This document shows, one piece after another, positions 2,365 to 41,811 of a DNA stretch of 64,000 nucleotides (the stretch's first letter is position 1; each line of letters starts with the position of its first letter). The notes under the pieces are model-generated. The model saw only the letters and a program-made list of their open reading frames with translations. It was not told where the DNA came from and did no database searches. The stretch comes from Candidatus Woesearchaeota archaeon (GTDB taxonomy: Archaea > Nanobdellota > Nanobdellia > Woesearchaeales > WJKL01): positions 225 to 64,224 of the forward strand of contig WJKL01000016.1 in NCBI GenBank assembly GCA_014729145.1. The letters are read 5' to 3'. The position numbers and the translations under genes were made by a program.

Positions 2365-5300
2365 ATGAATATGGAAGCAGCTGAAACTATAAATAAATTC
2401 AAAGAATTTTTTGAAAAAGAATATGAAGCTAAATTAAAAGATAGTGTTAGAAAAGGAAAACATTATCTTGTTATTGATTTTTCTGAACTTCTTAATTTTG
2501 ACCATGAGCTTTCTGATGGTCTTTTGGACAACCCAGAAGATTCTGTTGCTGCTGCTGAAGAGGCTGTAAAGGATTGTATTGATGGTAATATTAAAAAATT
2601 CAACATAAGATTCTTAAATCTTCCTGAAAACCAAAAGGTATTGGTAAGGAACATAAGAAGCAAACATATCGGAAGGCTTTTGGTGATGGATGGTGTGGTC
2701 AGGCAGAAAAGTGATGTAAGGCCGCAAGTAACTTCTGCAAAGTTTGAATGCCCTTCCTGCGGAAATATAATCAATGTTCTTCAGCTGGACAAAACATTCA
2801 AGGAACCAAATAAATGCGGGTGCGGAAGGAAAGGAAAATTTAGATTATTGAAGAAAGAACTGGTGGATGCTCAGGGGCTGGTTTTAGAAGAAGATCCTGA
2901 AAATCTTGAAGGAGGAGAGCAGCCAAAAAGGATGAATGTGCTGCTGCAGGACGATCTTGTAAGTCCTTTAAGCGAAAGGAAGACAAACCCTGGAAGCAAG
3001 ATAAAAATAATTGGAACAATAAAGGAAGTGCCAATATTTTCAAGAACTGGGAGCCAAACAACGAGATTTGACCTTCTTATAGAAGCAAATAATTTTGAAA
3101 CAATAGAGGAGAATTTCTATGAAGTTGAAATTACTAAAGAAGAGCATGAAGAGATCAAAAAGCTTTCAAAAGATCCTAAGATATACAAGAAACTTGTACA
3201 GTCAATAGCTCCATCTATATACGGCTATAAAAAAGTAAAAGAAGCATTGATACTGCAGCTTATGGGCGGGGTGCATAAGCAAAGACATGATGGGGTTGTA
3301 ACAAGAGGAGATATGCATATTCTTTTGATTGGGGATCCGGGAAGCGGAAAATCTCAGCTATTGAAAAGGGTAAATCTTATTGCGCCAAAAGGAAGATATG
3401 TATCTGGAAAGGGTGTTTCGGGTGCAGGACTTACTGCATCTGTTGTCAAGGATGAATTTTTAAAGGGATGGAGTTTAGAAGCAGGGGCTTTGGTATTGGC
3501 GAATAATGGAATGTGCTGTTTACATCCTGATACATCTATTGTCATTAATAATAAAATACAAAAAATATCAAAAATATTTGACTGCCATAAAAAAGAATTA
3601 GGAAAATGCAAAAATGAGATTGTTGAATTTAATGATATTGAAAAAGATGTAGTAAGTTTTGATATAAAAAGAATGGATTGTGAAAAACAAGTTTCGACAG
3701 TTATTAGGAGAAAGAAATTTGATGGCCATTTATTAAATGTCAAATTCAAATCAGGATTCTCTATAAAACTTACTCCTGACCACAAGATAATCGATGGAAA
3801 TCATTTAGGGTGGAAGGAAGCTCAAGAATTCAAAAAAGGGGAAAAAACATTGGCGCCCTTAAATTTGCCAAGCATTAAAGAAGATACTTTTATATTTGAC
3901 ATCTTACCTAAAAATTGGAAAGTTTTTTTGAACAAAAAAGAAAAAAACCAATTGAAGCAAAATATAAGAAGAAAATTTAAAACATTGAGCGCTTTCAATA
4001 AAAAATTTAACTTGGATAAGAATTTTCTTTCTGGAAGAAAACAAATAACTATTAAGAAATTTGAAAAAATCTTAGAATTTTTAGGAGAAAAAAATAAATG
4101 GAGAAAAATCCCTTTAAAATTTGGAAGGAATAAAAATGGAGAAAAATTGAAAATAGCCAAAATCACTCCAGAATTAGGCTATATATTAGGATTCATATTG
4201 GGAGATGGATATATAAATATGAATAAAAGAAGAACGACAATAAATATAACTCAATCTATCAAGAACAAGGAGAATATTAAAAGAATAAAAGAATATTGGA
4301 ATAAAATTTCATTGAAAAAATTAAAAGAAACTGAAGATAATAGAACCTCTAAGATTAGGGACCAAAAGGTAATATCAAAATGTAAAGTTCTTTATTCTGG
4401 GAGCAACCTTCTTGGTGGTTTATATAAACATTATACTTCGAATGCACTTGCCGAAATATTATCCCTGCCTGATGATGTGTTAAAAGGATTTATTGGTGGG
4501 ATTATGGATTCTGATGGCTGCATAAGTACAAGAAAGTACATAAAGAATGGAAATAAATATTTTACGCAGATTATTGAATTTTTATTTAGTAATGAAAGAA
4601 AAGAAAATCTTAATTTTATGCTTGCGCTTAGGAGATTTGATTGTTATGGTAAAATAAACGAGAGAGAAAATATAAAATCAGTCACAATTAGTAGTAGAAA
4701 AGATATATCTAATTTGATTAAAGAATTAGACTCTTTTTCTATTAAAATTAGTAAATCTAGATTATTAGTTAAGAATAAGCAAATTTCAGGAGACAGTGAT
4801 AAAATACCCTCCATCATTGGAAAAAAGATATGTGATAGGATAATAAAATTAAACAAATCCTTTTTGCTTAAGAAAGGTATATGGAGTACAGTTTATGGTT
4901 TTAAACATGGTGGAAGGGAACCTTCAAGAAATCAGATAATTAAAATCATCAATAAAACACAAGATATGATAAATGATAAAAAGTTTGTTGAGGGATCATT
5001 AGGATTGATAAAAAGAGACTATTTTCTAGATGAGATTGTTGATATAAAAAAAGAAAAATATTCAGGATATGTCTATGACTTATTTGTTCCGAAAAACCAT
5101 AACTTTCTTGCAGATGGAATAATTGTACATAATTGTATTGATGAGATGGACAAGATGAGCCAGGAAGACAGGAGTGCAATGCACGAGGCGCTTGAGCAGC
5201 AAAGCTTCCATTATGATACTTGGATTAGTTTAGCAGATGGTTCTGAAAAAAAGATTGGAAACTTCGTAGAAAAATTAATGAAAAAAAACCATAAAAAAAT

Positions 5301-7413
5301 TATAAAAGGAAAAGATTGTTATATACTTCCTACAGAAGACAAAGATGTAGAAATCTTCACTACTGATTGGAATAATATTTACAAAACAAAAATCAACAGA
5401 GTGAGCAAACACATTGCTCCAGATTATTTTATTAAAATAAAATTAAAAAATGGGAGAGAGATTACAGTAACTCCAGAACATCCTGTTTTCTATATAGATG
5501 AGTGTAAGATCAAAACCGTTGATGCTGAAAATGTAAAAGAAGATATGTGGATGCCTGTGCCTTTAGAAACAAATATAGAAGGAGAAAGTCAAAAATTTGA
5601 GATAACAAAAGAAGAATGCTACATAAATAGGGCTTCTCGACATATTGCTGTTCCGATGGAGAATGGAGAAAATTTCTTCAAGATTATAGGTTATATGCTA
5701 GCAGAAGGTTCTAAAGAACTTAATAGAGGAAAATTAATTGGTATTAATTTTACTAATAAAGATGAAAGATTATTAGAAGATTTTGAAAATTCCATGGAAG
5801 AATTATTTGGGCTTAGACCCTATAAACAACCCAGAATTGATGGTTATGATTTAAGATACATGTATAGGTATATTTCGAGAGAATTAAGTGTCTTTATTGA
5901 GAGAACATGTCCTGAGATATTAAATAAATCTAGTGAAAAAGAAATTCCTAAAATTTGTTTAAAAGGGAAAAAAGAAGATGTTGCTTTAATGCTTTCATGC
6001 ATGTTTGAAGGAGATGGTCATGTATCAAAAAAACTTAGAACTATTAGGGTAGGATTTGGATCTAATAGTAAGAAAATGTGCGAACAGGTTCAAGATTTGT
6101 TATTAAGATTTGGAATAAGAAGTAATTTGACTGAACACAAAAAAAGCTATAAAGTTTCGATTACTAGAAGAGAAAACTTGCTAAAATTTTATGAAAAAAT
6201 TGGATTTATTACTAAAGAAAAAAACAATATTATAAAAAAATATTTAGACAATGTAAAATTAAAAAGAAGTATCAAGAATAATATTCCTAATGTTTCTAAA
6301 AAAGTTATAAAATTGATGAAAAAATATGGTGTTAAATGTGTAGGAAATAATTGTTTGGCTACAATGAAATATGACTATCTTAAAAGAAGAAGAAATATAT
6401 CTAAACAAGCACTACAAGAGATTGTAAAAAAGATTTCTCCAAAACCTGAAGATAAGAAAGCCCATAATTTTCTTAAAAAAATGGCTTTTGGAAATATTGG
6501 ATTTGAAAAAATAAAATCTATTGAAAGAATAGAAAATAAGGATCAAAAATGGACTTATGATGTTACCATAGAGCCAACCCATAATTTTATTTCTCAAAAT
6601 ATGGTTTTACATAACACAATCAGCATAAGCAAGGCAAATATCCAGGCCACTCTTGTAGCTAGGACAACTGTGCTGGCTGCAGCAAACCCAAAGTTTGGAA
6701 GATTTGACCCTTATGATATCTTAGCGAAACAGATAGATCTTCCACCTGCGCTGATCAACAGGTTTGACCTTATATTTCCTATAAAAGATATGCCTGATAA
6801 AGAAAAAGACAAAAAAATGGCGCATCATATATTAGACCTTCATCAAAATCCTGATGTAGATGATCCTGAAATTGAAACAGAGCTTCTTAAGAAATATTTT
6901 GCCTATGCAAGACAGAATGTAAATCCAAAGCTTACCAGCGGTGCATTGGAGGAGATCAAAAATTATTATGTTGAGATGAGAAACAAAGAAGTGGGGGAAG
7001 AAGGCTCTGCAAGAGCAATACCAATATCACCAAGACAGCTTGAGGCTTTGATAAGATTGTCTGAGGCGTCTGCGAGGACAAGATTAAGCCCAAAAGTTAC
7101 AAAGAAAGACGCAAAAAAGGCAATAAGTCTGCTCCACCACTGCTTAAGTGAGATAGGTGTTGATCCAGAGACAGGAAAGATTGATATTGACAGAATTACT
7201 ACAGGTATAACAGCATCACAAAGAAACAAGATAGTGGTAATCAAGGAGATCATAAATGAGCTTGAGAATAAGATCGGAAAAACTATCCCTCTTGATGATC
7301 TGATAAAAGAGGCTGAAGACAAAGGAATAGAAGATATAGATGATGCTATTGAAAAGCTGAAAAGAAGCGGAGATATTTTTGAGCCCAAGAGAGGATTTAT
7401 ACAAAAGATCTAA
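2365..7413 (+). CDS. mcm: MCM replicative helicase interrupted by two inteins (1682 aa precursor; about 672 aa mature)
   Basis: N-terminal MCM domain with zinc finger (CPSCGN...CGCG), Walker A GDPGSGKSQ, Walker B CIDEMDKM split by insert 1, EQQ/TISISKA split by insert 2, arginine finger region LAAANP, C-terminal winged helix. Confidence 0.9.
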   Translation: MNMEAAETINKFKEFFEKEYEAKLKDSVRKGKHYLVIDFSELLNFDHELSDGLLDNPEDSVAAAEEAVKDCIDGNIKKFNIRFLNLPENQKVLVRNIRSKHIGRLLVMDGVVRQKSDVRPQVTSAKFECPSCGNIINVLQLDKTFKEPNKCGCGRKGKFRLLKKELVDAQGLVLEEDPENLEGGEQPKRMNVLLQDDLVSPLSERKTNPGSKIKIIGTIKEVPIFSRTGSQTTRFDLLIEANNFETIEENFYEVEITKEEHEEIKKLSKDPKIYKKLVQSIAPSIYGYKKVKEALILQLMGGVHKQRHDGVVTRGDMHILLIGDPGSGKSQLLKRVNLIAPKGRYVSGKGVSGAGLTASVVKDEFLKGWSLEAGALVLANNGMCCLHPDTSIVINNKIQKISKIFDCHKKELGKCKNEIVEFNDIEKDVVSFDIKRMDCEKQVSTVIRRKKFDGHLLNVKFKSGFSIKLTPDHKIIDGNHLGWKEAQEFKKGEKTLAPLNLPSIKEDTFIFDILPKNWKVFLNKKEKNQLKQNIRRKFKTLSAFNKKFNLDKNFLSGRKQITIKKFEKILEFLGEKNKWRKIPLKFGRNKNGEKLKIAKITPELGYILGFILGDGYINMNKRRTTINITQSIKNKENIKRIKEYWNKISLKKLKETEDNRTSKIRDQKVISKCKVLYSGSNLLGGLYKHYTSNALAEILSLPDDVLKGFIGGIMDSDGCISTRKYIKNGNKYFTQIIEFLFSNERKENLNFMLALRRFDCYGKINERENIKSVTISSRKDISNLIKELDSFSIKISKSRLLVKNKQISGDSDKIPSIIGKKICDRIIKLNKSFLLKKGIWSTVYGFKHGGREPSRNQIIKIINKTQDMINDKKFVEGSLGLIKRDYFLDEIVDIKKEKYSGYVYDLFVPKNHNFLADGIIVHNCIDEMDKMSQEDRSAMHEALEQQSFHYDTWISLADGSEKKIGNFVEKLMKKNHKKIIKGKDCYILPTEDKDVEIFTTDWNNIYKTKINRVSKHIAPDYFIKIKLKNGREITVTPEHPVFYIDECKIKTVDAENVKEDMWMPVPLETNIEGESQKFEITKEECYINRASRHIAVPMENGENFFKIIGYMLAEGSKELNRGKLIGINFTNKDERLLEDFENSMEELFGLRPYKQPRIDGYDLRYMYRYISRELSVFIERTCPEILNKSSEKEIPKICLKGKKEDVALMLSCMFEGDGHVSKKLRTIRVGFGSNSKKMCEQVQDLLLRFGIRSNLTEHKKSYKVSITRRENLLKFYEKIGFITKEKNNIIKKYLDNVKLKRSIKNNIPNVSKKVIKLMKKYGVKCVGNNCLATMKYDYLKRRRNISKQALQEIVKKISPKPEDKKAHNFLKKMAFGNIGFEKIKSIERIENKDQKWTYDVTIEPTHNFISQNMVLHNTISISKANIQATLVARTTVLAAANPKFGRFDPYDILAKQIDLPPALINRFDLIFPIKDMPDKEKDKKMAHHILDLHQNPDVDDPEIETELLKKYFAYARQNVNPKLTSGALEEIKNYYVEMRNKEVGEEGSARAIPISPRQLEALIRLSEASARTRLSPKVTKKDAKKAISLLHHCLSEIGVDPETGKIDIDRITTGITASQRNKIVVIKEIINELENKIGKTIPLDDLIKEAEDKGIEDIDDAIEKLKRSGDIFEPKRGFIQKI
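3517..5133 (+). mobile_element. Intein 1 in MCM (539 aa) with LAGLIDADG homing endonuclease domain. Inserted between NNGMC and CIDEMDKM (Walker B).
   Basis: Starts with Cys (CLHPDT), ends with His-Asn (IVHN), followed by a Cys +1 extein residue. LAGLIDADG-type motifs LGYILGFILGDGYI and KGFIGGIMDSDGCIS. The host motif is restored when the insert is removed. Confidence 0.75.
5203..6615 (+). mobile_element. Intein 2 in MCM (471 aa) with LAGLIDADG homing endonuclease domain. Inserted between EQQ and TISISKA.
   Basis: Starts with Ser (SFHYDT), ends with His-Asn (VLHN), followed by a Thr +1 residue. LAGLIDADG-type blocks IIGYMLAEGS and LSCMFEGDGHVS. Removal restores the canonical MCM motif EQQTISI. 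Confidence 0.7.
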
Positions 7414-7415
7414 AG

Positions 7416-8096
7416 ATGGCAGAGGAAATACAGAAAAGGCAGGTAGCAAAGAAGATAAAGATAAATGATGTTCTTAGTGGAAGCTATATTAAAGAGGATG
7501 GATGGAACCCTAATTTCATAGAGGTAAATGGAGAGAAGGTATCAAGGGTAAATATTATCGGGGCTGTGCTTGAAAAAGAGGAAGGAGATGGGCTCAATTA
7601 TATATCCATAATGCTTGATGATGGAAGCGGAAAAATATCAGGCAGGGTTTTCAAAGATGATATGTATAAATTAAAAGATATAGATATCGGAGATATAGTC
7701 CTGGCAATAGCAAGGCCAAGAGAATATGGAAGTGAAAGATATCTGCTATTGGAGATTGTCAAGAAGATAAAAAACAAGAAATGGATCAAAGTGAGGAAAT
7801 TAGAGCTTGAGAAAAAAAATGATGATGTAAAGGAAGTGGTGCAGAAAACAGAAGATATTGAAGAAACACCAACAGAGAGCAAAGAAGAAGTAGTTGAAGA
7901 AGATATTGTTAAAGAAGAGAAAGAGATGAACAATGTAGATAAAATAATAGATTTTGTCAGGGAAAAAGATAAAGGAGATGGGATAGATATACAGGCAATA
8001 GTTGACAAATTTGATGATGAAAGGATAGTAAAAGATTTGTTAAGTGAAGGAGAGCTTTTTGAAATAAAACCTGGAAGAGTTAAGGTTCTGGAATAA
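7416..8096 (+). CDS. RPA32-like ssDNA-binding protein candidate (OB-fold plus acidic linker plus C-terminal winged helix)
   Basis: Central OB-fold-like segment (NIIGAVLEKEEG...ISIMLDDGSGKISGRVFKD...GDIVLAIARP). Acidic E/D-rich linker. C-terminal segment IIDFVREKDKGDGIDIQAIVDKF...GELFEIKPGRVKVLE resembles the RPA32 C-terminal wH. Immediately downstream of mcm. Confidence 0.4.
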   Translation: MAEEIQKRQVAKKIKINDVLSGSYIKEDGWNPNFIEVNGEKVSRVNIIGAVLEKEEGDGLNYISIMLDDGSGKISGRVFKDDMYKLKDIDIGDIVLAIARPREYGSERYLLLEIVKKIKNKKWIKVRKLELEKKNDDVKEVVQKTEDIEETPTESKEEVVEEDIVKEEKEMNNVDKIIDFVREKDKGDGIDIQAIVDKFDDERIVKDLLSEGELFEIKPGRVKVLE

Positions 8097-9971: not shown

Positions 9972-12900
9972 CTAACCAAACCACTTTCCAAGACCTTCCT
10001 GCCTTTCTTTTTCTTTTCCAAAAACACTTTCAATCCTTCTTTGGAGTATTGTAAGTGTCTGCTTCAGATAATCAGGGATATTATATTTGTTTGCAAGAGA
10101 TATGCTTGGCTGGAGGTATTTTACTACAGAGCCTTCTGAGATGGTGAAGATTATCCTGCCTCCGCATTCAGTGCATTTTCCTATCAAAGGGGGCCGCCTG
10201 TATTTTGTATTGCATTTTACACAACGAAACTGCTGCATTGAAAATTTCCTGAGATTTCCTTTGATGTCTCTTAGGAAATGTTTTTCTATGACCAATCTTG
10301 CGACATCAGAGGTATCTACAGCTCTTAGTTTTTCTGCTATGTTCATCTGCCCCTTTAACTTATCCTCCATAGAAGGCAAAGTCTTGTATGCAGAACATCT
10401 TACCCCTTTATTTATGTTTGAGGTGTCATGTGTAAAACCAAGACCTTCATATTGCTTTGGTGTGTTAAGGTGGTCTCCAAGTTTTGATATTTCAATGTCC
10501 CATGGATCCTTATATGCAATGCATGCATTATAGAACTCAAGAGTGTATCTCCAGGCGATATCCATGTCAAATATCATATCATCTATTTCAGAAGGGATGA
10601 GTCTTGAGGTCATTACAAGGGGTGCGTCTTGGGTTGCTCCTCTGTGTGCAGGAAGGTACTGCCTGGAAAAATTGATTACTGCATCCATCAGAAGGTTTAC
10701 TGATGCTTCATCTCCGTCGCAGTCTCTTCTTGTAGCAGCATGGAGCATGGGATGAGCAAAAAAACCTTGGGTATTTGAAAAACCGATGATTCTCCCCACT
10801 ATTGCTGCAGAAGTGTGTGGCGCTAAAGCAAGAACAAGATGGCCGATAAGGTCTTGTTCAGATTTTAAATTATAGTAAGCTGGTAAGCTGTAAAGATTTT
10901 TAAGAAGGTCATCGCAGAATTTTGAAACCCTGAACAATACTTCATCTGCTCCCTGATCTGGAGATTCCTGACATGCAGGAAGAACTATGTCCTGTGGCTT
11001 TAATTCTAGAATCTGGTCTTTTTCCCTAAGGGGTTTTCCATGAATGTCTTTTATATATCCAAGCTCGTTAAGCTTTTCTACAGAAGTTCCTATCTCTTTT
11101 GGCTTGAAATGGGTCAGAGGAAGCTGAGTCATATCATACCTTGTTGTTCCGTCTTTGTTTACGTGTATATCATTTTTTGCCCTTAATATCCCTTTTATCA
11201 GGTGTTCAGGCACATGGTCTTTGTTTGATGTCCCTCTTACTCCTTTGATCAAATCAGGGTATGCTTTAATCTTTAATTTTTTAAGCATCTGCTTGAAATA
11301 ATACTTTATGTCAATATCCTGCAGCCTGTGATGTGGTATTTCTCCATGTTTTTTGCATTTCTCTTTTTCTTTTGATCCACAGATCTTGCAGAAATATCTT
11401 TTTTCTGTTCTTTTACCACAGGTTTCGCATACACTAAAGATGGTTTCTTTACTGCATCTTTTGCAGAAGAATAGGGGGAAATTGGACCTTATCTTTCCCT
11501 CTTCAAGTGCAGCCTGGAAAGAACGCAGTCTTCCCCCTTCATTTCCAACAGGGAACAGAACATGAGGTGATCCGGTAAGTTTTCTCATCTTGGCCTTTTC
11601 AGGACGCCCCATCCTTGCGCCTATGAATACTCCTGACTTGTCCCTAATCTTAACTGAGGATATATCTTTGATAATATCTAGGGGGTTCTTGTCTATTGAA
11701 GTAATATTAGAAATATTTAACTGGGCGATAAAAGCCGGGGCGTGATCTTTTTTGATTACTATAAACTCTTTATTGACAACAATATGGGGCAGACCTATCA
11801 GTTCCAATGCCCTTTTAGTATGCTCTTCTATCGGGATTATTATTTTCTTGGTGGTATTATTTTCTTTTTTTATCTCTGATTTTTTAATTGATCTTACAAG
11901 TTCAGAAAACTGCTCCTTGTTTATAAGCTTCCAGTGGTATGTATATCTTGGATGAAGAGGGATGTTCAACTTTAGAGAAAGTTTAAGGGCGTGCTGTGGA
12001 GAAATTATGGTATTTAGTGGGTTCTTAGTCAGCTTATTGAGTATATCTTCAGGTATTTCAGTAAACTCTGAAAGCTTGTAGGTGTCAAGATTTCCAAAAT
12101 TATCAACCGTGGCTTTTTCCAGCTCCTGTATCCACCATTCCTCACAATAACCAGGAGGTATCAAAGAATGAGCACGATTGAGGAAATCCCCATAGTTTAT
12201 GAGCATATCTCCCATGAAAAGGATCTCTTCAATATTATCTGAATATTCTTTTAGTTCTGATTCATTCTCTATCTTCACAACTGAACCGTCTTTGAGTTTT
12301 ATTATAGGACCTTCAAGCGTGTCGCAGACTGTGACGGTACAGCCTTTTCCAGGCCTCTCTATCTTCAGCTGGGTTCCAGTGCCAATATAATCATTTAAGG
12401 CTGCCATGGTAGCTGGGTGGATAGATGTAGCAGAATACCCTGATGTCCTTGACCTTCCAAATCTTAACCTAAATCCGCCAGGAGCAAGCGGGTGCGTCAA
12501 AACAGGCCTTCCTGCAACAAGGTCTTTTATGAATGTATGGTCCGGCTTTACTTCATTGGTTTCTTTTTCCTCTTTTTTATCTGGTGTCTGTTTTGATTTT
12601 ATCTTTTTTTGTAGTCTTACGAATTCTTCAAGAAAATCCCACTGCTCCATACTGAATTCGTGACCCCATTTTGAAAGCTGTTTCCATAATTTAGGGGCTT
12701 TTTGGGCAATTCCCTCTCCCATAGTAAGGCAGACCCCATTTCTGATCCTGTTTGTCTCTACTCTTTCAAGGTCCTTATAATTGGAAACCTCTATCTTTTC
12801 GGAAGGGTCTCCAGCTATCTGAACAGGTATGTGTTTAGCTAAAAATTCTATCTCTTCTGGAGAGGGAAGATATTGAAGATTGGTAATCTTTTCATGATAA

Positions 12901-13496
12901 TCATAAAGTTCAGTGACATACCTTTTAGTCTCCTTTTCGTTTGGATCATAAGGGTGATATCCCATCTTTTTTCTTACATAATCTGCAATCAAAACAGAAA
13001 CTGAAGCTCCGGTGCCCCCTGCACTCCTGATTGGTCCAGAAAAATATAGTTTAAAGTATTCTTTTCCTTCTTTTGTCTTTTCTATAGATAACTTGCTGAA
13101 ACCTTCAAGAGGGGATGCGACCGAACCTAAAGTATGGTATGCGAATCCTACCCTTATTCCCACCTCCATTGCTTCTTTTTTGTCTTCGAACTTGCAGAAT
13201 TTCTGATTTGCGATCTCTTCAGCGATTATGAGTGATATTCTCCAGTCCAGAACACTGTATTTTTTTTCGAGGTCCTGTATCCTTTTTGATACTCCTGAAT
13301 CTATAATCTGAGGTGCAACTGCAGAGATAAGCCCGGTTACACGCTCAGCCATATTCCTGGCAACAGGTATATCTATCTTTTCTTCTGGATCATATCCCTT
13401 CTTTCTTGCTTTGGAAGCCAGAGAAAGCCCTTTTTTCAGTTTTTCATCTATCTTTTTGAAGTAATCTTCCATCTCTTTTGAAGTTTGTGGGCTCAT
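9972..13496 (-). CDS. dp2: DNA polymerase II (PolD) large subunit DP2
   Basis: 1174 aa. Conserved DP2 blocks including Cys clusters (CKRCSKETIFSVCETCGKRTE...CKICG) and C-terminal zinc finger (CVKCNTKYRRPPLIGKCTECGG). Start overlaps the DP1 stop (ATGA). No intein. Confidence 0.9.
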   Translation of the reverse strand: MSPQTSKEMEDYFKKIDEKLKKGLSLASKARKKGYDPEEKIDIPVARNMAERVTGLISAVAPQIIDSGVSKRIQDLEKKYSVLDWRISLIIAEEIANQKFCKFEDKKEAMEVGIRVGFAYHTLGSVASPLEGFSKLSIEKTKEGKEYFKLYFSGPIRSAGGTGASVSVLIADYVRKKMGYHPYDPNEKETKRYVTELYDYHEKITNLQYLPSPEEIEFLAKHIPVQIAGDPSEKIEVSNYKDLERVETNRIRNGVCLTMGEGIAQKAPKLWKQLSKWGHEFSMEQWDFLEEFVRLQKKIKSKQTPDKKEEKETNEVKPDHTFIKDLVAGRPVLTHPLAPGGFRLRFGRSRTSGYSATSIHPATMAALNDYIGTGTQLKIERPGKGCTVTVCDTLEGPIIKLKDGSVVKIENESELKEYSDNIEEILFMGDMLINYGDFLNRAHSLIPPGYCEEWWIQELEKATVDNFGNLDTYKLSEFTEIPEDILNKLTKNPLNTIISPQHALKLSLKLNIPLHPRYTYHWKLINKEQFSELVRSIKKSEIKKENNTTKKIIIPIEEHTKRALELIGLPHIVVNKEFIVIKKDHAPAFIAQLNISNITSIDKNPLDIIKDISSVKIRDKSGVFIGARMGRPEKAKMRKLTGSPHVLFPVGNEGGRLRSFQAALEEGKIRSNFPLFFCKRCSKETIFSVCETCGKRTEKRYFCKICGSKEKEKCKKHGEIPHHRLQDIDIKYYFKQMLKKLKIKAYPDLIKGVRGTSNKDHVPEHLIKGILRAKNDIHVNKDGTTRYDMTQLPLTHFKPKEIGTSVEKLNELGYIKDIHGKPLREKDQILELKPQDIVLPACQESPDQGADEVLFRVSKFCDDLLKNLYSLPAYYNLKSEQDLIGHLVLALAPHTSAAIVGRIIGFSNTQGFFAHPMLHAATRRDCDGDEASVNLLMDAVINFSRQYLPAHRGATQDAPLVMTSRLIPSEIDDMIFDMDIAWRYTLEFYNACIAYKDPWDIEISKLGDHLNTPKQYEGLGFTHDTSNINKGVRCSAYKTLPSMEDKLKGQMNIAEKLRAVDTSDVARLVIEKHFLRDIKGNLRKFSMQQFRCVKCNTKYRRPPLIGKCTECGGRIIFTISEGSVVKYLQPSISLANKYNIPDYLKQTLTILQRRIESVFGKEKERQEGLGKWFG

Positions 13497-15109: not shown

Positions 15110-16321
15110 TTAAGATATATCTAATCCTTCCTCTAAAATATTTTTTATGGTCTGTTCGGATGACTCTGATATAGATAAAGTTATATCTCTTGTTCTTCCA
15201 TATCTTCCCTTTGATATTACCTTTGCATTTATTATCCCTAACATATCCAACTCTGCGATAACATCTGAGACCCTTCTTTGGGTTAGGGGCCTTATGTTAG
15301 TTTTGGAGCATATCTTTTTGTAAACTTCATATACCTCTCCTGTGAATATCTGTTTTTCTTTTTTAGAGCAAATAGAAAGGATAGAGTAAAGGATAGCCTG
15401 GTGTTGTTTTGGTTGGGTTCTTATTATATCTAAAATTCTGTCTTTTTCTATCTTTTCTTCTGCAAAATCAATATCATCTAATTCTATCTTTTCTTTGTTT
15501 TTTCTTTCTGCCAGTTCGCCTGCGACCCGCAAGAGCTCCAGGGCCCTTCTTGCATCCCCATGTTCTCTGGCTGCATAAGCGGCACATTTTTCTATCACTC
15601 CTGATTTCATTGATTTTTTTTGGAATGCTTTTTTTGCCCTCTGTCTTAAGATATCCTGTATCTGGATTGCATTATATGGGGGGAAGATTATCTCTTCTTC
15701 TGATAATGAAGATTTTACCCTTGGATCTAAATTATCTCTGAACATTAGGTCATTGGATACCCCAATTATTGATATTTGAGATTTTTGAAGCTCTGAATTT
15801 ATTCTTGTTAGGTTATATAATACTTCATCCCCTGTTTTACTTACAAGCTGGTCGATCTCATCCAAAATCAATAAAATCAAAGAATTTTCTTTTTCTATCA
15901 AATTGAATACTATCTTATATACTTCTTCTGTTGGTAGGCCTGTTGATGGGATCTCCTGTCCAAGTTCTCTAGAAATCTGAGCAACTAATCTATATTCAGT
16001 GTCTGCGATTTTTTTTAACTTACAGTTTAGATATATTGTTTTGAGAGGTATTTTTCTTTTGGTTGCTACATTTATCAGTTTGTTGGATGTAAATTTTATC
16101 GAAAGGGTCTTTCCTGTTCCTGTTTTTCCATAAATGAAAAGATTAGAAGGTTTGTCTAACTTTAAGGCTGGTGCTAAGATATCTGCTATTTCTTGTATCT
16201 GCTTATCTCTATGGGGTGTTGTTTCTGGTGTAAAGTTTGATTGAAGTGCTTTTTTGTTTGTGAATATTGATTTTTTATCTAAGAATTCTTCGAAAAATAC
16301 ATCTATATTTTTTTGATCCAT
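15110..16321 (-). CDS. orc1: Orc1/Cdc6 replication initiator
   Basis: 403 aa AAA+ protein with Walker A GKTGTGKT and Walker B LILDEID. C-terminal winged-helix domain. Starts 15 bp from ORB1. Confidence 0.9.
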   Translation of the reverse strand: MDQKNIDVFFEEFLDKKSIFTNKKALQSNFTPETTPHRDKQIQEIADILAPALKLDKPSNLFIYGKTGTGKTLSIKFTSNKLINVATKRKIPLKTIYLNCKLKKIADTEYRLVAQISRELGQEIPSTGLPTEEVYKIVFNLIEKENSLILLILDEIDQLVSKTGDEVLYNLTRINSELQKSQISIIGVSNDLMFRDNLDPRVKSSLSEEEIIFPPYNAIQIQDILRQRAKKAFQKKSMKSGVIEKCAAYAAREHGDARRALELLRVAGELAERKNKEKIELDDIDFAEEKIEKDRILDIIRTQPKQHQAILYSILSICSKKEKQIFTGEVYEVYKKICSKTNIRPLTQRRVSDVIAELDMLGIINAKVISKGRYGRTRDITLSISESSEQTIKNILEEGLDIS

Positions 16322-22041: not shown

Positions 22042-23193
22042 TTGATGGTTTCCCAAGACGAAATAGTAAATGTGATCAGACATAAAGGACCTTTGCTTCC
22101 ATCCACATTGGCCAAAGAGATCGGAACAAATATTTTGATAGCTTCTGCGCATTTATCTGACTTAGTGGACAAGAAAAAGGTTTTTGTCTCAAATACAAAA
22201 GTAGGGGGAAGCCCTGTTTATTATATTGAGGGCCAAAAATCAAAGCTGCAGGATTTTGCATCCAACTTGAATGAAAAAGATCAAGAAACATTAGAATTTC
22301 TAAAAAAAAATAAAGTTTTAAGGGATGATAAGCTAGACCAACTAAAAAGAGTTTCTTTGAGGAATATAAAAGATTTTGCAGTTCCTCTGCAGGTTACCAA
22401 AGGGAATGAGAAAATATTGTTTTGGAAATGGTTTTTGATATCAAATCAAGAGGCAGAATCTTTGATCAAACAAAAACTGGAATCATCTCCAGTAACAGCG
22501 AAAAAAACAGAGGAACCCAAACAACAAGATATTAGAAAAGAAAATCAAAAATCAACAGAAGAGAATAAAAAGAGTATAGAAGAAGAGAAAAAAAGAGCAG
22601 AAGAAGAGAGAAAAAAATCAGAAGAAAGAAAAGCACTCGAAGACCAGAAAAAGAAAGAAGAGGAAAAGAAAAAGGCAGAGCAGAAAAAAAAGATACAAGA
22701 AGAAAGAGAAAGAGAAAAGAAAAAATTAGAACAGGAAAAGAAGAAGATAGAGGAAGAAAGAAAAAAGATACAAGAAGAAAGAGAAAAATTACAGGAAGAG
22801 ATAAAAAAGGAAAGGCAAAGCTTATTAAAAGAGATCCAAAACAAAGATAAGGAAGGGAAAGACAAACAAAAAAAGATTGATGACCCTTTTTTAAAACAAA
22901 TAATTGAATATTTAGACAATAAAAAAATACATCTGAATGAGTATAATATAATAAGAAAGAAATCAGAGATTGATTTGGTGTTGAAGATACCTTCTGTGAT
23001 AGGGGACCTGGATTATTACTGTAAGGCAAAGAAAAAGATGAGGGTAAGCGATTCAGATCTAAGTTCAGCGATAGTAAAAGGACAGTCAAAGAAACTTCCA
23101 ATAATATTTTTAACTACAGGAAAGTTGAACAGAAAAGCAAAGAAACTGATGAATTCAGAATTCAAAGGAAGCATAGTCATCAAAAAGATATAG
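22042..23193 (+). CDS. Novel multidomain protein: two N-terminal winged-helix-like domains, a roughly 100-aa Lys/Glu-rich coiled coil, and a C-terminal Mrr-like PD-(D/E)xK nuclease domain
   Basis: N-terminal wH-like segments. Central EEKKRAEEERKK...repeats. C-terminal EIDLVLKIP...YYCKAKKK...IIFLTTGKLNRKAKKL matches the Mrr_cat pattern (D-x-D/E-L-V ... Q/YxK ... TTg.f...A). Confidence 0.45.
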   Translation: MMVSQDEIVNVIRHKGPLLPSTLAKEIGTNILIASAHLSDLVDKKKVFVSNTKVGGSPVYYIEGQKSKLQDFASNLNEKDQETLEFLKKNKVLRDDKLDQLKRVSLRNIKDFAVPLQVTKGNEKILFWKWFLISNQEAESLIKQKLESSPVTAKKTEEPKQQDIRKENQKSTEENKKSIEEEKKRAEEERKKSEERKALEDQKKKEEEKKKAEQKKKIQEEREREKKKLEQEKKKIEEERKKIQEEREKLQEEIKKERQSLLKEIQNKDKEGKDKQKKIDDPFLKQIIEYLDNKKIHLNEYNIIRKKSEIDLVLKIPSVIGDLDYYCKAKKKMRVSDSDLSSAIVKGQSKKLPIIFLTTGKLNRKAKKLMNSEFKGSIVIKKI

Positions 23194-34751: not shown

Positions 34752-35726
34752 ATGGAAAAAGTTATGAATAATACAGCAATATGGACTGAAAAGTACAGGC
34801 CTGAGACTTTTAAAGAGGTTAAGGGCCAGGATGAGATAGTCAATAGAGTCAGTTCTTTTGTTGAGAAGAAGAATATGCCTCATCTTATGTTTGCAGGGCC
34901 TGCAGGGATCGGAAAAACAACTTTGGCATTGGTGATCGCAAAACAGCTTTTTGGAGAAAGCTGGAGACAGAATTTTTTAGAGTTAAACGCTTCTGACGAA
35001 AGAGGGATAGATATCATCAGACACAAGGTCAAGGATTTTGCAAGGACAAGAGCAATCGGAGATGTTCCGTTTAAGATAATTTATCTAGATGAATGTGATG
35101 CTTTGACCAAAGAGGCTCAGCAGGCATTAAGAAGGACTATGGAGAATTTTACAAGAACAACAAGGTTTATCTTAAGCTGCAACTATTCTTCTAAGATTAT
35201 CGATCCGATACAATCAAGATGTGCAGTTTTCAGGTTTAAGCTTTTGCCCAAAAAAGATGTTTTTGAGATAATAGAAAAGATTGCTGCAGAGGAAAACCTA
35301 AAGATCAGTGACAAAGCAAAGGAAGCTTTGTATGTTATCAGCGATGGGGACTGCAGGAGAGTAGAGAATATACTACAGAGCTGCGCCTCTATCTCCGACA
35401 ATATAACTGAAGAGGTAGTTTTTTCTTTGGCTTCAGTGGCAAAGCCCAAGGAAGTCAAGGAGTTTTTGGAAATGGCTTTGGAGAACAAGTTTATTGAAGC
35501 AAGGAAAAAGATGCTTGATGTGATGCTTAATTATGGATTAAGCGGATTAGATGTTGTAAAGCAGATACAGAAAGAAATATGGAAGTTAGAGATAGACGGG
35601 AGAAAAAAGATGGATCTGGTAGATAAATGCGGAGAGATAGAATTTAGGATGACAGAGGGAAGCGATGAATATATCCAATTAGAGGCTTTGTTAAGCCAGG
35701 TTGGATTGGCTGGTCTGAAAAGATAA
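34752..35726 (+). CDS. rfcS: Replication factor C small subunit
   Basis: 324 aa. Walker A GPAGIGKTT, DEAD-like YLDECD, SRC motif (QSRCAVFRF). No intein. Confidence 0.85.
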   Translation: MEKVMNNTAIWTEKYRPETFKEVKGQDEIVNRVSSFVEKKNMPHLMFAGPAGIGKTTLALVIAKQLFGESWRQNFLELNASDERGIDIIRHKVKDFARTRAIGDVPFKIIYLDECDALTKEAQQALRRTMENFTRTTRFILSCNYSSKIIDPIQSRCAVFRFKLLPKKDVFEIIEKIAAEENLKISDKAKEALYVISDGDCRRVENILQSCASISDNITEEVVFSLASVAKPKEVKEFLEMALENKFIEARKKMLDVMLNYGLSGLDVVKQIQKEIWKLEIDGRKKMDLVDKCGEIEFRMTEGSDEYIQLEALLSQVGLAGLKR

Positions 35727-38548: not shown

Positions 38549-40561
38549 TTAGGCTATGCCTGGACTTACCAGGTCTATCTTTTTTTGCTTGGTGTATTTA
38601 TAGGTATAAGTCATTTCTGACTTAAACTCTATTGGATAATCTTCAAAATCCTTAATATTCTTCAATTCTTCAGGAACAATCAAATCACAAGTTAAGCGAG
38701 GAGGTTTGTCTGTTCCCTCCCATATTATATTATTATCTTGGGTTATTATGTATCCTTCTTTTTCACAGTTGCCTGAAGGAATTATTCCATATTCTCTTAA
38801 GTCTATAAGAACTTTTTTTATAGATAAAAGCTCGCCTCCTTTCTCCTTTTTGAGGTCTTCATATTTTCCAGTAAAAGTCAATGTAGCTTTATCATAGATA
38901 AGCTTATCTGCCCCTATCCTGAAAGTATAAACTGCAAATTCATCCCCAGTTATAGATGCTTTGCTTTCCCTTGGTGAAGAATCAGTTGCCTGCTGAACTT
39001 CTTGTTTTTCTCTGCTGTCCATCCATATATTTTCTCCTACAAATATTCTCTCCAATACTGCTGTGGTTGTGATGTCTTCAGCTGTTACCTCAAATACAGC
39101 AGTAACACTTCTCTGTTCAGGATAAGGAAGGTCAGGAGCACAATATACCAGATCCTTGTCCTTTCCTTTTACTGTGATCTCTCTAGCTCTGGAAGGATTT
39201 ATTATTCCAGGAATTTTATTCTCATCAGAGGTTTTAAACAAACAAGATAGTTTAATATTTACTGGATTATTTATGGGGGATTCTAAGATAACATTCATAG
39301 GTATCCCTTCTCTACTGTTTGATGGAATATCACTATACCATGCAGCATCTGTAAGTTCTTCAAATCTAATATTGGTGGCAGTATATTCTTCTTTTATCTC
39401 CACTTCCACCCCTTTTCCAAGCGCTTTATTTATACACTCTTCGCGTTCTTCTGTTTCTGCTTCATATTCCGAGCATACTCTTTCTGCATTTCTTTGATTT
39501 AGACATTCATCGTAATTTTCCTGGCGGGAACAATAAACAGGATCCATCAAAGACCCCCAGGTATCACCAATATTTTTTAAGGATCCGGCAATAAATCCTT
39601 TGGCTTCTTCTACCTGTTCAGGTTCAAGGCCTGCTTCAATCCTTCCAAGCTGCACTGCTCCGTTCCAGAATGCAAAGACATTTATTATAATAATAAAAAA
39701 AGTCATCACATTCATCCATGTGGGCTTTTCTTTTGTGGTTATTATTATCGCATATATCCAGATGGGAATTATCAGCCTGTTGGAGATGATGGGATTATTT
39801 ACATAATTTGCCAGAATTCCAAATCCAAAAAAATCTATAAACAAAAGAATGGAAGCTATAAAATTTGCAGTTGTCTTGTCTCCTGAAACAGGGTACAAAT
39901 AAAAAACATAAAAAGATATGGCAAATAGGAGGTGAATTATACTTCCTGAATCAACTCCACCTAATGTTATTATCAGACTTCCTACTTCAAGCAAAAGGAA
40001 GAAAGACAAGAATTCTTTTTTGTTGGGTTTTTTCAATACAAGATATGCTATCGCCAATACCAGTACAACCCCATTTAAAAAAAGTCTTGCCATGTTTTCA
40101 GGGCTGAGCTGCACGAATCTTGACAAAAATAATCCAACATCTATCCCATTAAATCTTGTTAAAAATAAATCTAACAAGTATAAAACAATAGCCAGAATAA
40201 ACCACATTCCTGCTCCGCCAGTTGGTTTACTGCTTGTTTTTCGTTTTCCCTTTTTTAATGTGCCAAAGGCAGCACCTCCTGCAGATAATGCTCCTGTGCC
40301 AGCCAATTTTAAACCTTTTCCAGCAAGTTTTGCGCCTTTTTTTAATCCTGGTTTAACATCATAAGTGGCCGCACGCCCTGTAGCAGACAATCCTTTTTTT
40401 CCTGTTTCTACTGGGTGTCTTACTGCTTTAGTTCCTTTTTTTATTCCTTTCCAAGCACCTTTTCCCCCTTTTGTAAAAGTAGGGAATACTTTAGCTAATT
40501 TTTCTTTTAATCCTTTTTCAGTAAGTTCTTCTTCTACCTCTTTTTTATCATCTTCAGCCAT
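38549..40561 (-). CDS. Large polytopic membrane protein. Lys/Gly-rich cytoplasmic N-terminus, about 7 TM helices, roughly 330-aa C-terminal extracytoplasmic domain.
   Basis: 670 aa. N-terminal low-complexity KGxK/AGxG repeats. Hydrophobic core from about 120-300 aa. Cys-containing C-terminal domain. 4 bp upstream of paralog 1. Confidence 0.45.
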   Translation of the reverse strand: MAEDDKKEVEEELTEKGLKEKLAKVFPTFTKGGKGAWKGIKKGTKAVRHPVETGKKGLSATGRAATYDVKPGLKKGAKLAGKGLKLAGTGALSAGGAAFGTLKKGKRKTSSKPTGGAGMWFILAIVLYLLDLFLTRFNGIDVGLFLSRFVQLSPENMARLFLNGVVLVLAIAYLVLKKPNKKEFLSFFLLLEVGSLIITLGGVDSGSIIHLLFAISFYVFYLYPVSGDKTTANFIASILLFIDFFGFGILANYVNNPIISNRLIIPIWIYAIIITTKEKPTWMNVMTFFIIIINVFAFWNGAVQLGRIEAGLEPEQVEEAKGFIAGSLKNIGDTWGSLMDPVYCSRQENYDECLNQRNAERVCSEYEAETEEREECINKALGKGVEVEIKEEYTATNIRFEELTDAAWYSDIPSNSREGIPMNVILESPINNPVNIKLSCLFKTSDENKIPGIINPSRAREITVKGKDKDLVYCAPDLPYPEQRSVTAVFEVTAEDITTTAVLERIFVGENIWMDSREKQEVQQATDSSPRESKASITGDEFAVYTFRIGADKLIYDKATLTFTGKYEDLKKEKGGELLSIKKVLIDLREYGIIPSGNCEKEGYIITQDNNIIWEGTDKPPRLTCDLIVPEELKNIKDFEDYPIEFKSEMTYTYKYTKQKKIDLVSPGIA

Positions 40562-40617: not shown

Positions 40618-41811
40618 TTAAGTTTCCAATGAAACCTTTAATTCAACTATGTCAAGCACTTCTTCGGGTTCTATCTTAAATGCATTGTTGCCCAGGTCAA
40701 CCCATTTACTTATAGTCTGGTTGAATTCTACTTCGGTCTGGTCAAGCCTTATCAGGCGGTTATTAATAGTGATATCTGCAACTTTTTCACTAACATCATC
40801 AACAAACTCGATATACAATACCGCTTCTGTTCCATTTTCTTCAATCTCTTCAAAATCGTCTCTTTCTATTTCAAAATAATAGACAGGAGCAACTGCCTCT
40901 TTTAATTCTGAGTTTAACATTATATTATCAATAAGATATCTTCCTTTGTTTGTAAAGAATTTTAATATGTTTTCTCCTGCAACCAACCTTTCAGGAATGA
41001 ACTCTAGCGGCCTTATAGGTACATTACAATCAGCAACTGCAGAGTAAAGTTCATAATTGTTTACTTGGACTGTGAGTGTTCCTGCTTCACCCTGGGTGCA
41101 GTCAGGAGTAAACCTTAATTTTACTTTTTCCATATTGTTTATCTCTTCTTCACTAGCTACAAAAGCCAAAGCACTTTCCTGGGTCTCTTTTCTGAGGATA
41201 TCTGCAGTAACAAGTATGTCTTCCAAAGAATATTCATTTGTTCTCCAAAATGCAGCACCAGGAGAGGAAACCTCAAATTCAACTAAATTATCTCCCTGGA
41301 TAAGGTGCTCATTAAGGTTAATGGGATTTATATTACCTGTTTCTTGTTCTTTGTCAAATATTTCATTTCCATTTAATCTTATCATAAGCCTTCCTTGGCC
41401 TTCTTCTATATAAAAATTCAACAACGCATCTTTTATACTATCCATGTCTGTTATCTCAAATGTTATATTATTTTGGTTGTTTCTGAACAATGATCTGCTG
41501 GTGTATAAAGAATTCAGTTTTTTGAGTTCCATACCTTCTTCTCCAACATATATACTTACAGCTGGAAATGATTTTTCAAATTCTCTTTTTTCTGCAGGAA
41601 AGAGTCTTCCAGGAGATTCAGAAAGCAGTATATCAATCTCTTTTCCTTTTTCTTTAGCTTCTTCTAATTCATCCTCTCCCAATATCTTTTCTCTTTCTTC
41701 AGGAGGAATCAATAATATATATAATATAATAAACAGACCAATCAGCGCTATCAAGACAGCAGCTGCTGAAGCATTATTTCCCTGCGCTTTTTTCTTCAAT
41801 TTTGAAAACAT
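40618..41811 (-). CDS. N-terminally membrane-anchored extracytoplasmic protein (first gene of the surface-protein operon)
   Basis: 397 aa. Single N-terminal TM or signal-anchor (AAAVLIALIGLFIILYILLI). Acidic, beta-rich remainder. Confidence 0.4.
   Translation of the reverse strand: MFSKLKKKAQGNNASAAAVLIALIGLFIILYILLIPPEEREKILGEDELEEAKEKGKEIDILLSESPGRLFPAEKREFEKSFPAVSIYVGEEGMELKKLNSLYTSRSLFRNNQNNITFEITDMDSIKDALLNFYIEEGQGRLMIRLNGNEIFDKEQETGNINPINLNEHLIQGDNLVEFEVSSPGAAFWRTNEYSLEDILVTADILRKETQESALAFVASEEEINNMEKVKLRFTPDCTQGEAGTLTVQVNNYELYSAVADCNVPIRPLEFIPERLVAGENILKFFTNKGRYLIDNIMLNSELKEAVAPVYYFEIERDDFEEIEENGTEAVLYIEFVDDVSEKVADITINNRLIRLDQTEVEFNQTISKWVDLGNNAFKIEPEEVLDIVELKVSLET

Follow-up and report, generated by a model that had tools for sequence, protein, structure and literature searches.

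We consider it probable (at about 0.75) that the mcm gene of a Candidatus Woesearchaeota archaeon, encoding the replicative helicase MCM, carries two independent class-1 inteins, which are unrelated to each other and each of which has a LAGLIDADG homing endonuclease nested within it, and that both of these inteins splice and are competent in homing. The gene lies in a stretch of 64,000 nucleotides (64 kb) of contig WJKL01000016.1 of assembly GCA_014729145.1 (positions 225 to 64,224 of the forward strand), and this whole stretch is referred to here as the window. The evidence consists of the anatomy of the two elements, their family membership, their catalytic residues and predicted folds, of purifying selection acting on the first of them, and of presence/absence polymorphism among related genomes. 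Among archaeal proteins, MCM is the one that hosts inteins most commonly, and their invasion of its catalytic motifs is a textbook case.

The mcm gene (2365–7413, this and all features within it being on the + strand) is a single uninterrupted frame with a stop codon at 7411–7413, translating into a precursor of 1682 amino acids (aa), in which Pfam profiles recognize MCM_N, MCM_OB, the MCM P-loop domain in three stretches, MCM_lid and MCM_WH_arc and, in the same scan, two copies of Intein_splicing along with LAGLIDADG_3. The N-extein (384 aa, 2365–3516, ending in NNGMC) comprises the N-terminal domain, a Zn finger (CPSCG at 2749–2763 and CGCG at 2815–2826), Walker A (GDPGSGKS, 3331–3354) and the hydrophobic Walker B strand. 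It is followed by intein 1 (539 aa, precursor residues 385–923, 3517–5133), by a middle extein of 23 aa (CIDEMDKMSQEDRSAMHEALEQQ, 5134–5202) that carries the acidic residues of Walker B, by intein 2 (471 aa, precursor residues 947–1417, 5203–6615), and by the C-extein (265 aa plus stop, 6616–7413), which starts with TISISKANIQ of the pre-sensor-1 beta-hairpin and also holds sensor 1 (AAANP, 6676–6690), the arginine-finger region (NRFD, 6757–6768), the lid and the winged helix. The insertion of intein 1 breaks the Walker B strand just ahead of the catalytic Asp-Glu, and that of intein 2 parts EQQ from the pre-sensor-1 hairpin. As the middle extein measures 69 bp, the two homing sites would be 69 bp apart in an intein-free allele.

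With both inteins taken out, a 672-aa MCM results, in which Walker B and the pre-sensor-1 region are rejoined, and which keeps Walker A, sensor 1, the Arg finger, sensor 2, the Zn finger, the lid and the winged helix. This spliced product aligns with PDB chain 8x7t_D (E = 2.9e-154) with zero gaps at both junctions, the query GALVLANNGMCCIDEMDKMS standing opposite GVLVLADGGFALIDEFDKMS and HEALEQQTISISKA being identical in both, and the alignment with PDB 4r7y is likewise gap-free at both junctions. Compared with 670-aa intein-free MCMs annotated as Candidatus Woesearchaeota, it shows up to 83% identity in full-length alignments, and, as it aligns end to end with intein-free MCMs, a third insertion is ruled out. 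The closest MCMs are annotated as those of Woesearchaeota or Nanoarchaeota, which makes a DPANN source most likely for the window. These results agree with an original prediction, made by reading the sequence only, whose intein boundaries and lengths are identical to our independently computed junctions, whose terminal residues (Cys1...HN|Cys in intein 1, Ser1...HN|Thr in intein 2) are found in the true reading frame, and whose proposal that removal of both elements would restore the MCM motifs in a protein of about 672 aa is borne out by the gap-free alignments, with the extein motifs intact. Its estimate of a tripled gene length was too high, as the ratio of 1682/672 corresponds to a 2.5-fold expansion.

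Intein 1 is of the class-1 type and is delimited by the junctions VLANNGMC|CLHPDTS and ADGIIVHN|CIDEMDKM, with Cys1 (codon TGT at 3517) as the position-1 nucleophile and with Cys at the +1 position. Its block B (TPDH, intein aa 86–89) is found at 3766–3786, and its blocks F/G (VYDLF...IIVHN) at 5014–5133, with D521 in block F and with the terminal pair H538-N539. The first LAGLIDADG motif, LGYILGFILGDGYI (...ILGDG; 4174–4215), contains the catalytic Asp230, and the second, GIMDSDGCIS (4498–4527), contains Asp333, which is the same in 12/12 homologues. Three modules build up the protein: the HINT splicing domain, the two-motif LAGLIDADG endonuclease, and an extra, mostly helical insert (approximately aa 120–215). 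This insert follows the N-terminal half of the splicing domain and precedes the endonuclease core, and it accounts for the PI-PkoII-like size of this intein. When scanned alone, intein 1 matches the Pfam families Intein_splicing (PF14890, E = 1.1e-23) and LAGLIDADG_3 (PF14528, E = 7.7e-8), as well as the NCBIfam models for the intein N-terminal region (TIGR01445, 38 bits, cut-off 24.5) and C-terminal region (TIGR01443, 33 bits, cut-off 15.6). An AlphaFold2 model built from the alignment of homologues has a mean pLDDT of 92.0.

Intein 2 combines a HINT domain with a two-motif LAGLIDADG endonuclease, and its junctions read HEALEQQ|SFHYDTW and SQNMVLHN|TISISKAN, with Ser1 (codon AGC at 5203–5205) as the position-1 nucleophile and with Thr at the +1 position. 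Block B (TPEH, intein aa 90–93) is located at 5464–5484, and blocks F/G (TYDVT...MVLHN) at 6496–6615, with D453 in block F and with the terminal pair H470-N471. The catalytic residues of the two LAGLIDADG motifs are Glu168 in IIGYMLAEGS (5683–5712) and Asp271 in FEGDGHVS (6004–6027), the former position being occupied by Glu/Asp and the latter by Asp/Glu in 15/15 homologues. These motifs and those of intein 1 are the four blocks quoted in the original prediction, each located as given above. Scanned alone, intein 2 matches Intein_splicing (PF14890, E = 1e-22), LAGLIDADG_3 (PF14528, E = 1.3e-25) and TIGR01445 (63 bits, cut-off 24.5), the NCBIfam scores of both inteins thus being above the respective cut-offs and the profile matches far outside what chance would yield, and its AlphaFold2 model, also from a homologue alignment, has a mean pLDDT of 92.4. 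Ser1 is also present in the Thermococcus, Odinarchaeia and P0021 homologues, while Cys1 is present in the closest full-length ones (P0011, P0013-15, P0023, P0024), so that a natural Cys/Ser swap of the first nucleophile is seen inside this one family.

Among the homologues of both inteins, the conserved positions include C1/S1, the Thr and His of block B, the acidic residues of LAGLIDADG, the Asp of block F, and the terminal HN, of which the Asn is invariant and the penultimate His nearly so. Exchanges at these positions are conservative (Asp/Glu and, at position 1 of intein 2, Cys/Ser). By sequence, the matches in PDB are the Pho/Pab CDC21-1, RadA and PI-PkoII inteins. By structure, the top Foldseek matches in PDB (E from 1e-16 to 1e-26) are PI-PkoII (2cw7; E = 3e-21 and 4.5e-26 for the two intein models), TliVMA (7qss; TM up to 0.74/0.80) and PI-PfuI (1dq3), followed by PI-SceI, by free-standing LAGLIDADG enzymes, and by mini-inteins such as Pab/Pho CDC21-1. 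The endonuclease parts match I-DmoI, I-OnuI, E-DreI, I-Tsp061I and the endonuclease parts of PI-PkoII and PI-PfuI, and the AlphaFold2 secondary structure displays the duplicated alpha-beta-beta-alpha-beta-beta-alpha core in both endonucleases. PI-PkoII, TliVMA and PI-PfuI share with the window inteins the HINT domain, the two-motif LAGLIDADG core and accessory DNA-binding modules (TM 0.5–0.8), but sequence identity is as low as 14–19%, their host proteins are PolB, V-ATPase and RNR, and domain orientation differs, with overall root-mean-square deviations of 5–8 Å. The two inteins were also considered as duplicates of one another, and this was rejected: in BLASTP comparisons their similarity is confined to blocks B and F/G, which points to two separate invasions.

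Homologous inteins at exactly these two junctions are found in MCMs of Thermococcus, Odinarchaeia, Hodarchaeota, Thaumarchaeota and Nanoarchaeota, in line with the original prediction that insertion into the catalytic motifs of the replicative helicase represents classic intein behavior. Relatives of intein 1 were recognized in nine database proteins, all of them MCMs, at 28–46% identity, the nearest database member being at 46%, with source labels that include Hodarchaeota, Thermococcus, Thaumarchaeota and Odinarchaeia. All of them end in VHN|C(I/L)DE(F/L/I)DKM and, where the start is present, begin with CLHP(D/S), the complete ones measuring 533–540 aa. Relatives of intein 2 were recognized in 12 proteins, at 39–58% identity and at the site EQ(Q/R)|...LHN|(T/S)(I/V)(S/T), the full ones measuring 464–471 aa and the reduced ones 332 (P0009), 191 (P0008) and 173 aa (P0021). 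In four proteins, from Thermococcus guaymasensis DSM 11113 (P0009), a Thermococcus metagenome-assembled genome (MAG; P0003), an Odinarchaeia MAG (P0008), and P0021, both sites are filled and are separated by the same 23-residue spacer (CIDEFDKM...EQQ). As in the window, intein 1 of these proteins ends in IIVHN|C, and intein 2 opens with Ser and closes with LHN|T. They differ from the window in that intein 2 is reduced in P0009, P0008 and P0021 and incomplete at the fragment end in P0003, while in the window both inteins are of full length, with intact endonuclease motifs, and P0003 has an extra, third mini-intein at SAAGL|TAA. The window inteins are ordinary members of intein lineages known at the same sites elsewhere in Archaea. 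In a Woesearchaeota MCM (P0065), the Walker B codon used by intein 1 is occupied by an intein of 428 aa (GIC|CTTGDTEF...IIMHN|CIDELDKM), which, being only 23% identical to intein 1, is of a different lineage, and thus at least two intein lineages target the Walker B site within the same phylum. In viral contigs, the intein relatives amount to matches at 21–35% identity plus one 34-residue match to a C-terminal splicing block, and no vector was found among them.

In the literature, InBase and Novikova et al. (2016; PMC4760082) list archaeal MCM (CDC21) inteins, with sites named a to e, and these share with the window inteins the host protein and the insertion into conserved ATPase motifs. They differ in the host organisms, the DPANN/Woesearchaeota type being a group barely sampled by published intein surveys. 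In haloarchaeal MCMs, up to four inteins are known (PMC3972481). Tentatively, intein 2 corresponds to site c and intein 1 to site e or d, as far as the naming can be matched among the catalogs, which differ in this respect (PMC3972481; PMC4760082; PMC10643990). Both sites and their double occupancy are already known from the literature (PMC4760082; PMC10643990) as well as from public genomes, and what the window adds is a pair of divergent members of full length, out of a phylum that has been poorly sampled.

A scan of a genome collection with the spliced MCM as a query recovered five loci. One of these, L003 (CAZFSZ010000021), encodes an MCM of 1209 aa whose exteins are approximately 94% identical to those of the window, and mcm is followed there by the same OB-fold gene and by a SpoIIM-like gene; based on this extein identity and the shared downstream genes, L003 is the orthologous syntenic locus. 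It holds intein 1 at the same codon (approximate coordinates 1241–2857), at 83% identity to that of the window, and its site 2, with the reading HEALEQQTVSISKA, is empty, the DNA there matching the reconstructed empty site of the window in 52/60 positions. Neither intein is present in L001 and L002 (65–69% identity) or in P0033/P0034 (83%), and P0015 (64% identity over the N-extein) has intein 2 alone. Inteins are missing from 113 of the 120 best extein relatives, and the other seven have a single intein, inserted at GK|S of Walker A in four, at G|SGKS in two, and at Walker B in one (P0065). Such a mix of alleles indicates, as read from these genomes, independent and evolutionarily recent gain or loss. 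The most parsimonious history would start with an intein-free ancestor, with intein 1 entering before or around the split of the window and L003 lineages and intein 2 entering later, on the window branch, the alternative to the latter gain being a precise loss in L003. The loci L002 (CAYMBN010000012) and L003 are titled "uncultured Methanosarcinales archaeon" even though their MCMs cluster with those of Woesearchaeota/Nanoarchaeota, and this label is probably wrong. The two inteins at G|SGKS belong to Woesearchaeota-like MCMs (P0132 and P0144; GDPG|CIAGDSQ...VCHN|SGKS), and this site, which lies three residues upstream of GK|S, the classical P-loop site occupied in P0053, P0059, P0060, P0080 and L004, may be an MCM insertion site that is less well documented.

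For the window and L003, selection was gauged as the ratio of nonsynonymous to synonymous substitution rates (dN/dS; Nei-Gojobori method). This ratio is 0.027 for the exteins and 0.128 for the whole of intein 1 (0.10–0.15 for its segments), with 0.139 for the endonuclease core and 0.035 for the C-terminal splicing block. From these values, the endonuclease of intein 1 is upheld by selection, as expected of an element that is homing now or did so until recently. The original prediction had proposed recent or active mobility of both elements, guessing from the size of their domains. This proposal now has partial comparative support, in purifying selection along all of intein 1, endonuclease included (dN/dS of 0.13–0.14), and in the lack of intein 2 from the approximately 94% identical L003 allele, while activity itself is still a deduction.

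Silent divergence is lower in intein 1 than in its host gene: at four-fold sites, the composition-corrected distance between the window and L003 is 0.58 for intein 1 versus 1.00 for the flanking exteins, and 0.4% of bootstrap replicates are without this difference. Composition is not the cause, as the base composition at four-fold sites is equal in intein 1 and the exteins. As a lead only, the two intein 1 copies may be younger than the host split, as would result from horizontal homing with short conversion tracts. This suggestion is weakened by the flanks of intein 1, in which the same comparison with L003 revealed no tract of low divergence, and by the near saturation of dS in the exteins. 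Transfer of intein 1 between phyla is hinted at by its 46% identity to the copies from Thermococcales-like hosts, versus 49% for the exteins, even though intein 1 evolves approximately three times faster in the close pair. One further candidate for a trace of homing was the G+C content at third codon positions (GC3) of the 23-codon spacer (5134–5202), which is 0.65, as opposed to 0.32 over the extein as a whole. A foreign donor leaving its mark by co-conversion was rejected as the cause, as the intein-free L001 peaks alike (0.61 vs. 0.29). The peak belongs to the conserved motif itself, which is rich in Met/Glu/Lys, and is no trace of homing. Nor did sliding nucleotide identity display an anomaly near either intein site when the window was compared with L003.

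The mechanism we envision is the standard one for these families. The whole 1682-aa precursor would be translated, and each intein would then excise itself, by an N-S acyl shift at Cys1 (intein 1) or an N-O acyl shift at Ser1 (intein 2), trans-esterification onto the +1 Cys (intein 1) or the +1 Thr (intein 2), cyclization of the terminal Asn, helped by the penultimate His, and a final acyl rearrangement, leaving the three exteins joined as the 672-aa MCM. Splicing would rebuild the strand of Walker B, again reading GMC-CIDEMD, and the EQQ-TISISKA junction that leads into the pre-sensor-1 hairpin, and, as intein 1 breaks the former and intein 2 the latter, an active helicase would need both splicing events. 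Each endonuclease would cut its own intein-free site, and repair off the intein-bearing allele would copy the intein in. The two inteins would have arrived separately, intein 1 either residing in the lineage common to the window and L003 or being exchanged with it, and intein 2 being acquired later, on the window branch.

Several points weigh against this scenario. Splicing and endonuclease activities are attributed to the window inteins through family membership. For intein 2, no relative exceeds 58% identity, so that selection on its endonuclease is not measurable, and no donor was identified. The extein dS between the window and L003 is above 1, thus near saturation, and the preference for a gain of intein 2 over its loss comes from parsimony over few genomes. 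Composition is of little help: the G+C content of intein 1 (26.6%) and of intein 2 (27.2%) is below that of the exteins (37–38%) and below the minimum of the 50 host open reading frames (ORFs) in the window (28.1%; mean 34.7%, sd 2.3), and their GC3 values are 0.22 and 0.19 versus a host mean of 0.30 (sd 0.045), but this is weak evidence for a foreign origin, as it mostly reflects amino acid composition (low GC1; rich in Lys, Asn and Ile).

A different view of the same data is that the inteins splice but the endonucleases are dead, the elements being fixed, vertically inherited passengers in the decaying phase of the homing cycle. Decay does occur in this lineage, as the mini- or endonuclease-less versions of intein 2 at the same site (P0021, P0008 and P0009, as detailed above) testify, most of the 120 best extein relatives are intein-free, the closest relative of intein 2 is a distant one, and no recent transfer is directly documented. 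Such a view must contend with the catalytic Asp/Glu kept in both LAGLIDADG motifs of each intein, with the family-typical full length of both, with an endonuclease dN/dS in intein 1 that is far from neutral, and with the polymorphism of intein 2 between alleles of approximately 94% extein identity. On balance we find dead endonucleases unlikely, while seeing such a state as especially possible for intein 2, for which selection cannot be gauged.

Two more radical explanations question the gene itself. The mcm gene might be pseudogene-like, its inserts not splicing and the helicase being supplied by another mcm elsewhere in the genome, and indeed the 64 kb in view could leave a second copy outside, and some Archaea, such as Thermococcus kodakarensis, have several MCM homologues (PMC3972481). 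The intact frame of 1682 codons, the very strong purifying selection on the exteins, the integrity of all MCM catalytic motifs and intein splicing residues, and the conserved replication neighborhood (TBP, PolD, Orc1), syntenic in L003, make this very improbable. Still harder to credit is a chimera of assembly or binning, in which fragments of mcm would be joined to intein DNA from other organisms. It could draw on the distinctly lower G+C content of the inteins and on the absence of the exact 1682-aa protein from a large protein collection. Both junctions are in frame and codon-exact, and the independent assembly of L003 not only has intein 1 at the same codon, but has it with a similarly low G+C content (25.5% vs. 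38.0%), and assemblies from other phyla contain homologous inteins at both sites, around the same 23-aa spacer.

An experimental parallel is provided by Haloferax mediterranei, in which the endonucleases of MCM-a and of MCM-d are each active alone, and in which efficient homing is limited to alleles that have one of the sites empty (Turgeman-Grott et al., 2023; PMC10643990). As in the window, two LAGLIDADG inteins are near each other in one gene, as described in that source, and the states seen in the window and its relatives (both inteins, either one alone, or neither) fit the model of sequential single homing. The differences are in the sites, which are the P-loop and a downstream one in H. 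mediterranei versus Walker B and EQQ|T, 69 bp apart, in the window, in the archaeal phylum, and in the nature of the evidence, which for the window comes from sequence. It is conceivable, if rather improbable, that the endonuclease-equipped pair has been caught mid-way through sequential homing in a DPANN population, with intein 1 perhaps exchanged with the L003 lineage after their divergence, as its lower four-fold-site distance would suggest. If so, it would present a natural test, beyond haloarchaea, of the model that neighboring inteins interfere in co-homing. More speculatively, the cluster of Cys(-1), Cys1 and Cys(+1) at intein 1 may make splicing, and hence helicase maturation, conditional on redox state.

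No concept is changed by the finding, but it has practical consequences. The true mcm product is fixed at 672 aa in a DPANN genome, for which gene callers would give a 1682-aa "MCM/LAGLIDADG" fusion. Two full-length and probably active intein-endonucleases are added to families with few, mostly fragmentary members, and the two enzymes could be mined as new meganuclease or splicing tools. The set of alleles, with both inteins, either one, or neither, forms a small natural dataset for studying the homing cycle and the interaction of closely spaced inteins.

The neighborhood of mcm is a replication/information-processing cluster, which includes the genes for TBP (1666–2241), PolD DP2 (1173 aa, 9972–13496) and DP1, Orc1/Cdc6 (15110–16321) and the RFC small subunit (324 aa, 34752–35726). 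The original prediction that PolD, RFC and Orc1 are intein-free is upheld, as a domain scan of DP2, DP1, Orc1/Cdc6 and the RFC small subunit detected no intein domain. Scans of the 64-kb window for tRNAs and Rfam families returned no matches, and for three of its sizeable ORFs, at 22042–23193 (+, 383 aa), 38549–40561 (-, 669 aa) and 40618–41811 (-, 396 aa), no Pfam family matches at E <= 1e-5. Beginning 3 nucleotides past the mcm stop is the gene for a 226-aa OB-fold protein (7416–8096, + strand; PF01336, E = 2e-8; no NCBIfam match), which is syntenic in L003 (3721–4407) and may encode an SSB/RPA-like partner co-transcribed with mcm.

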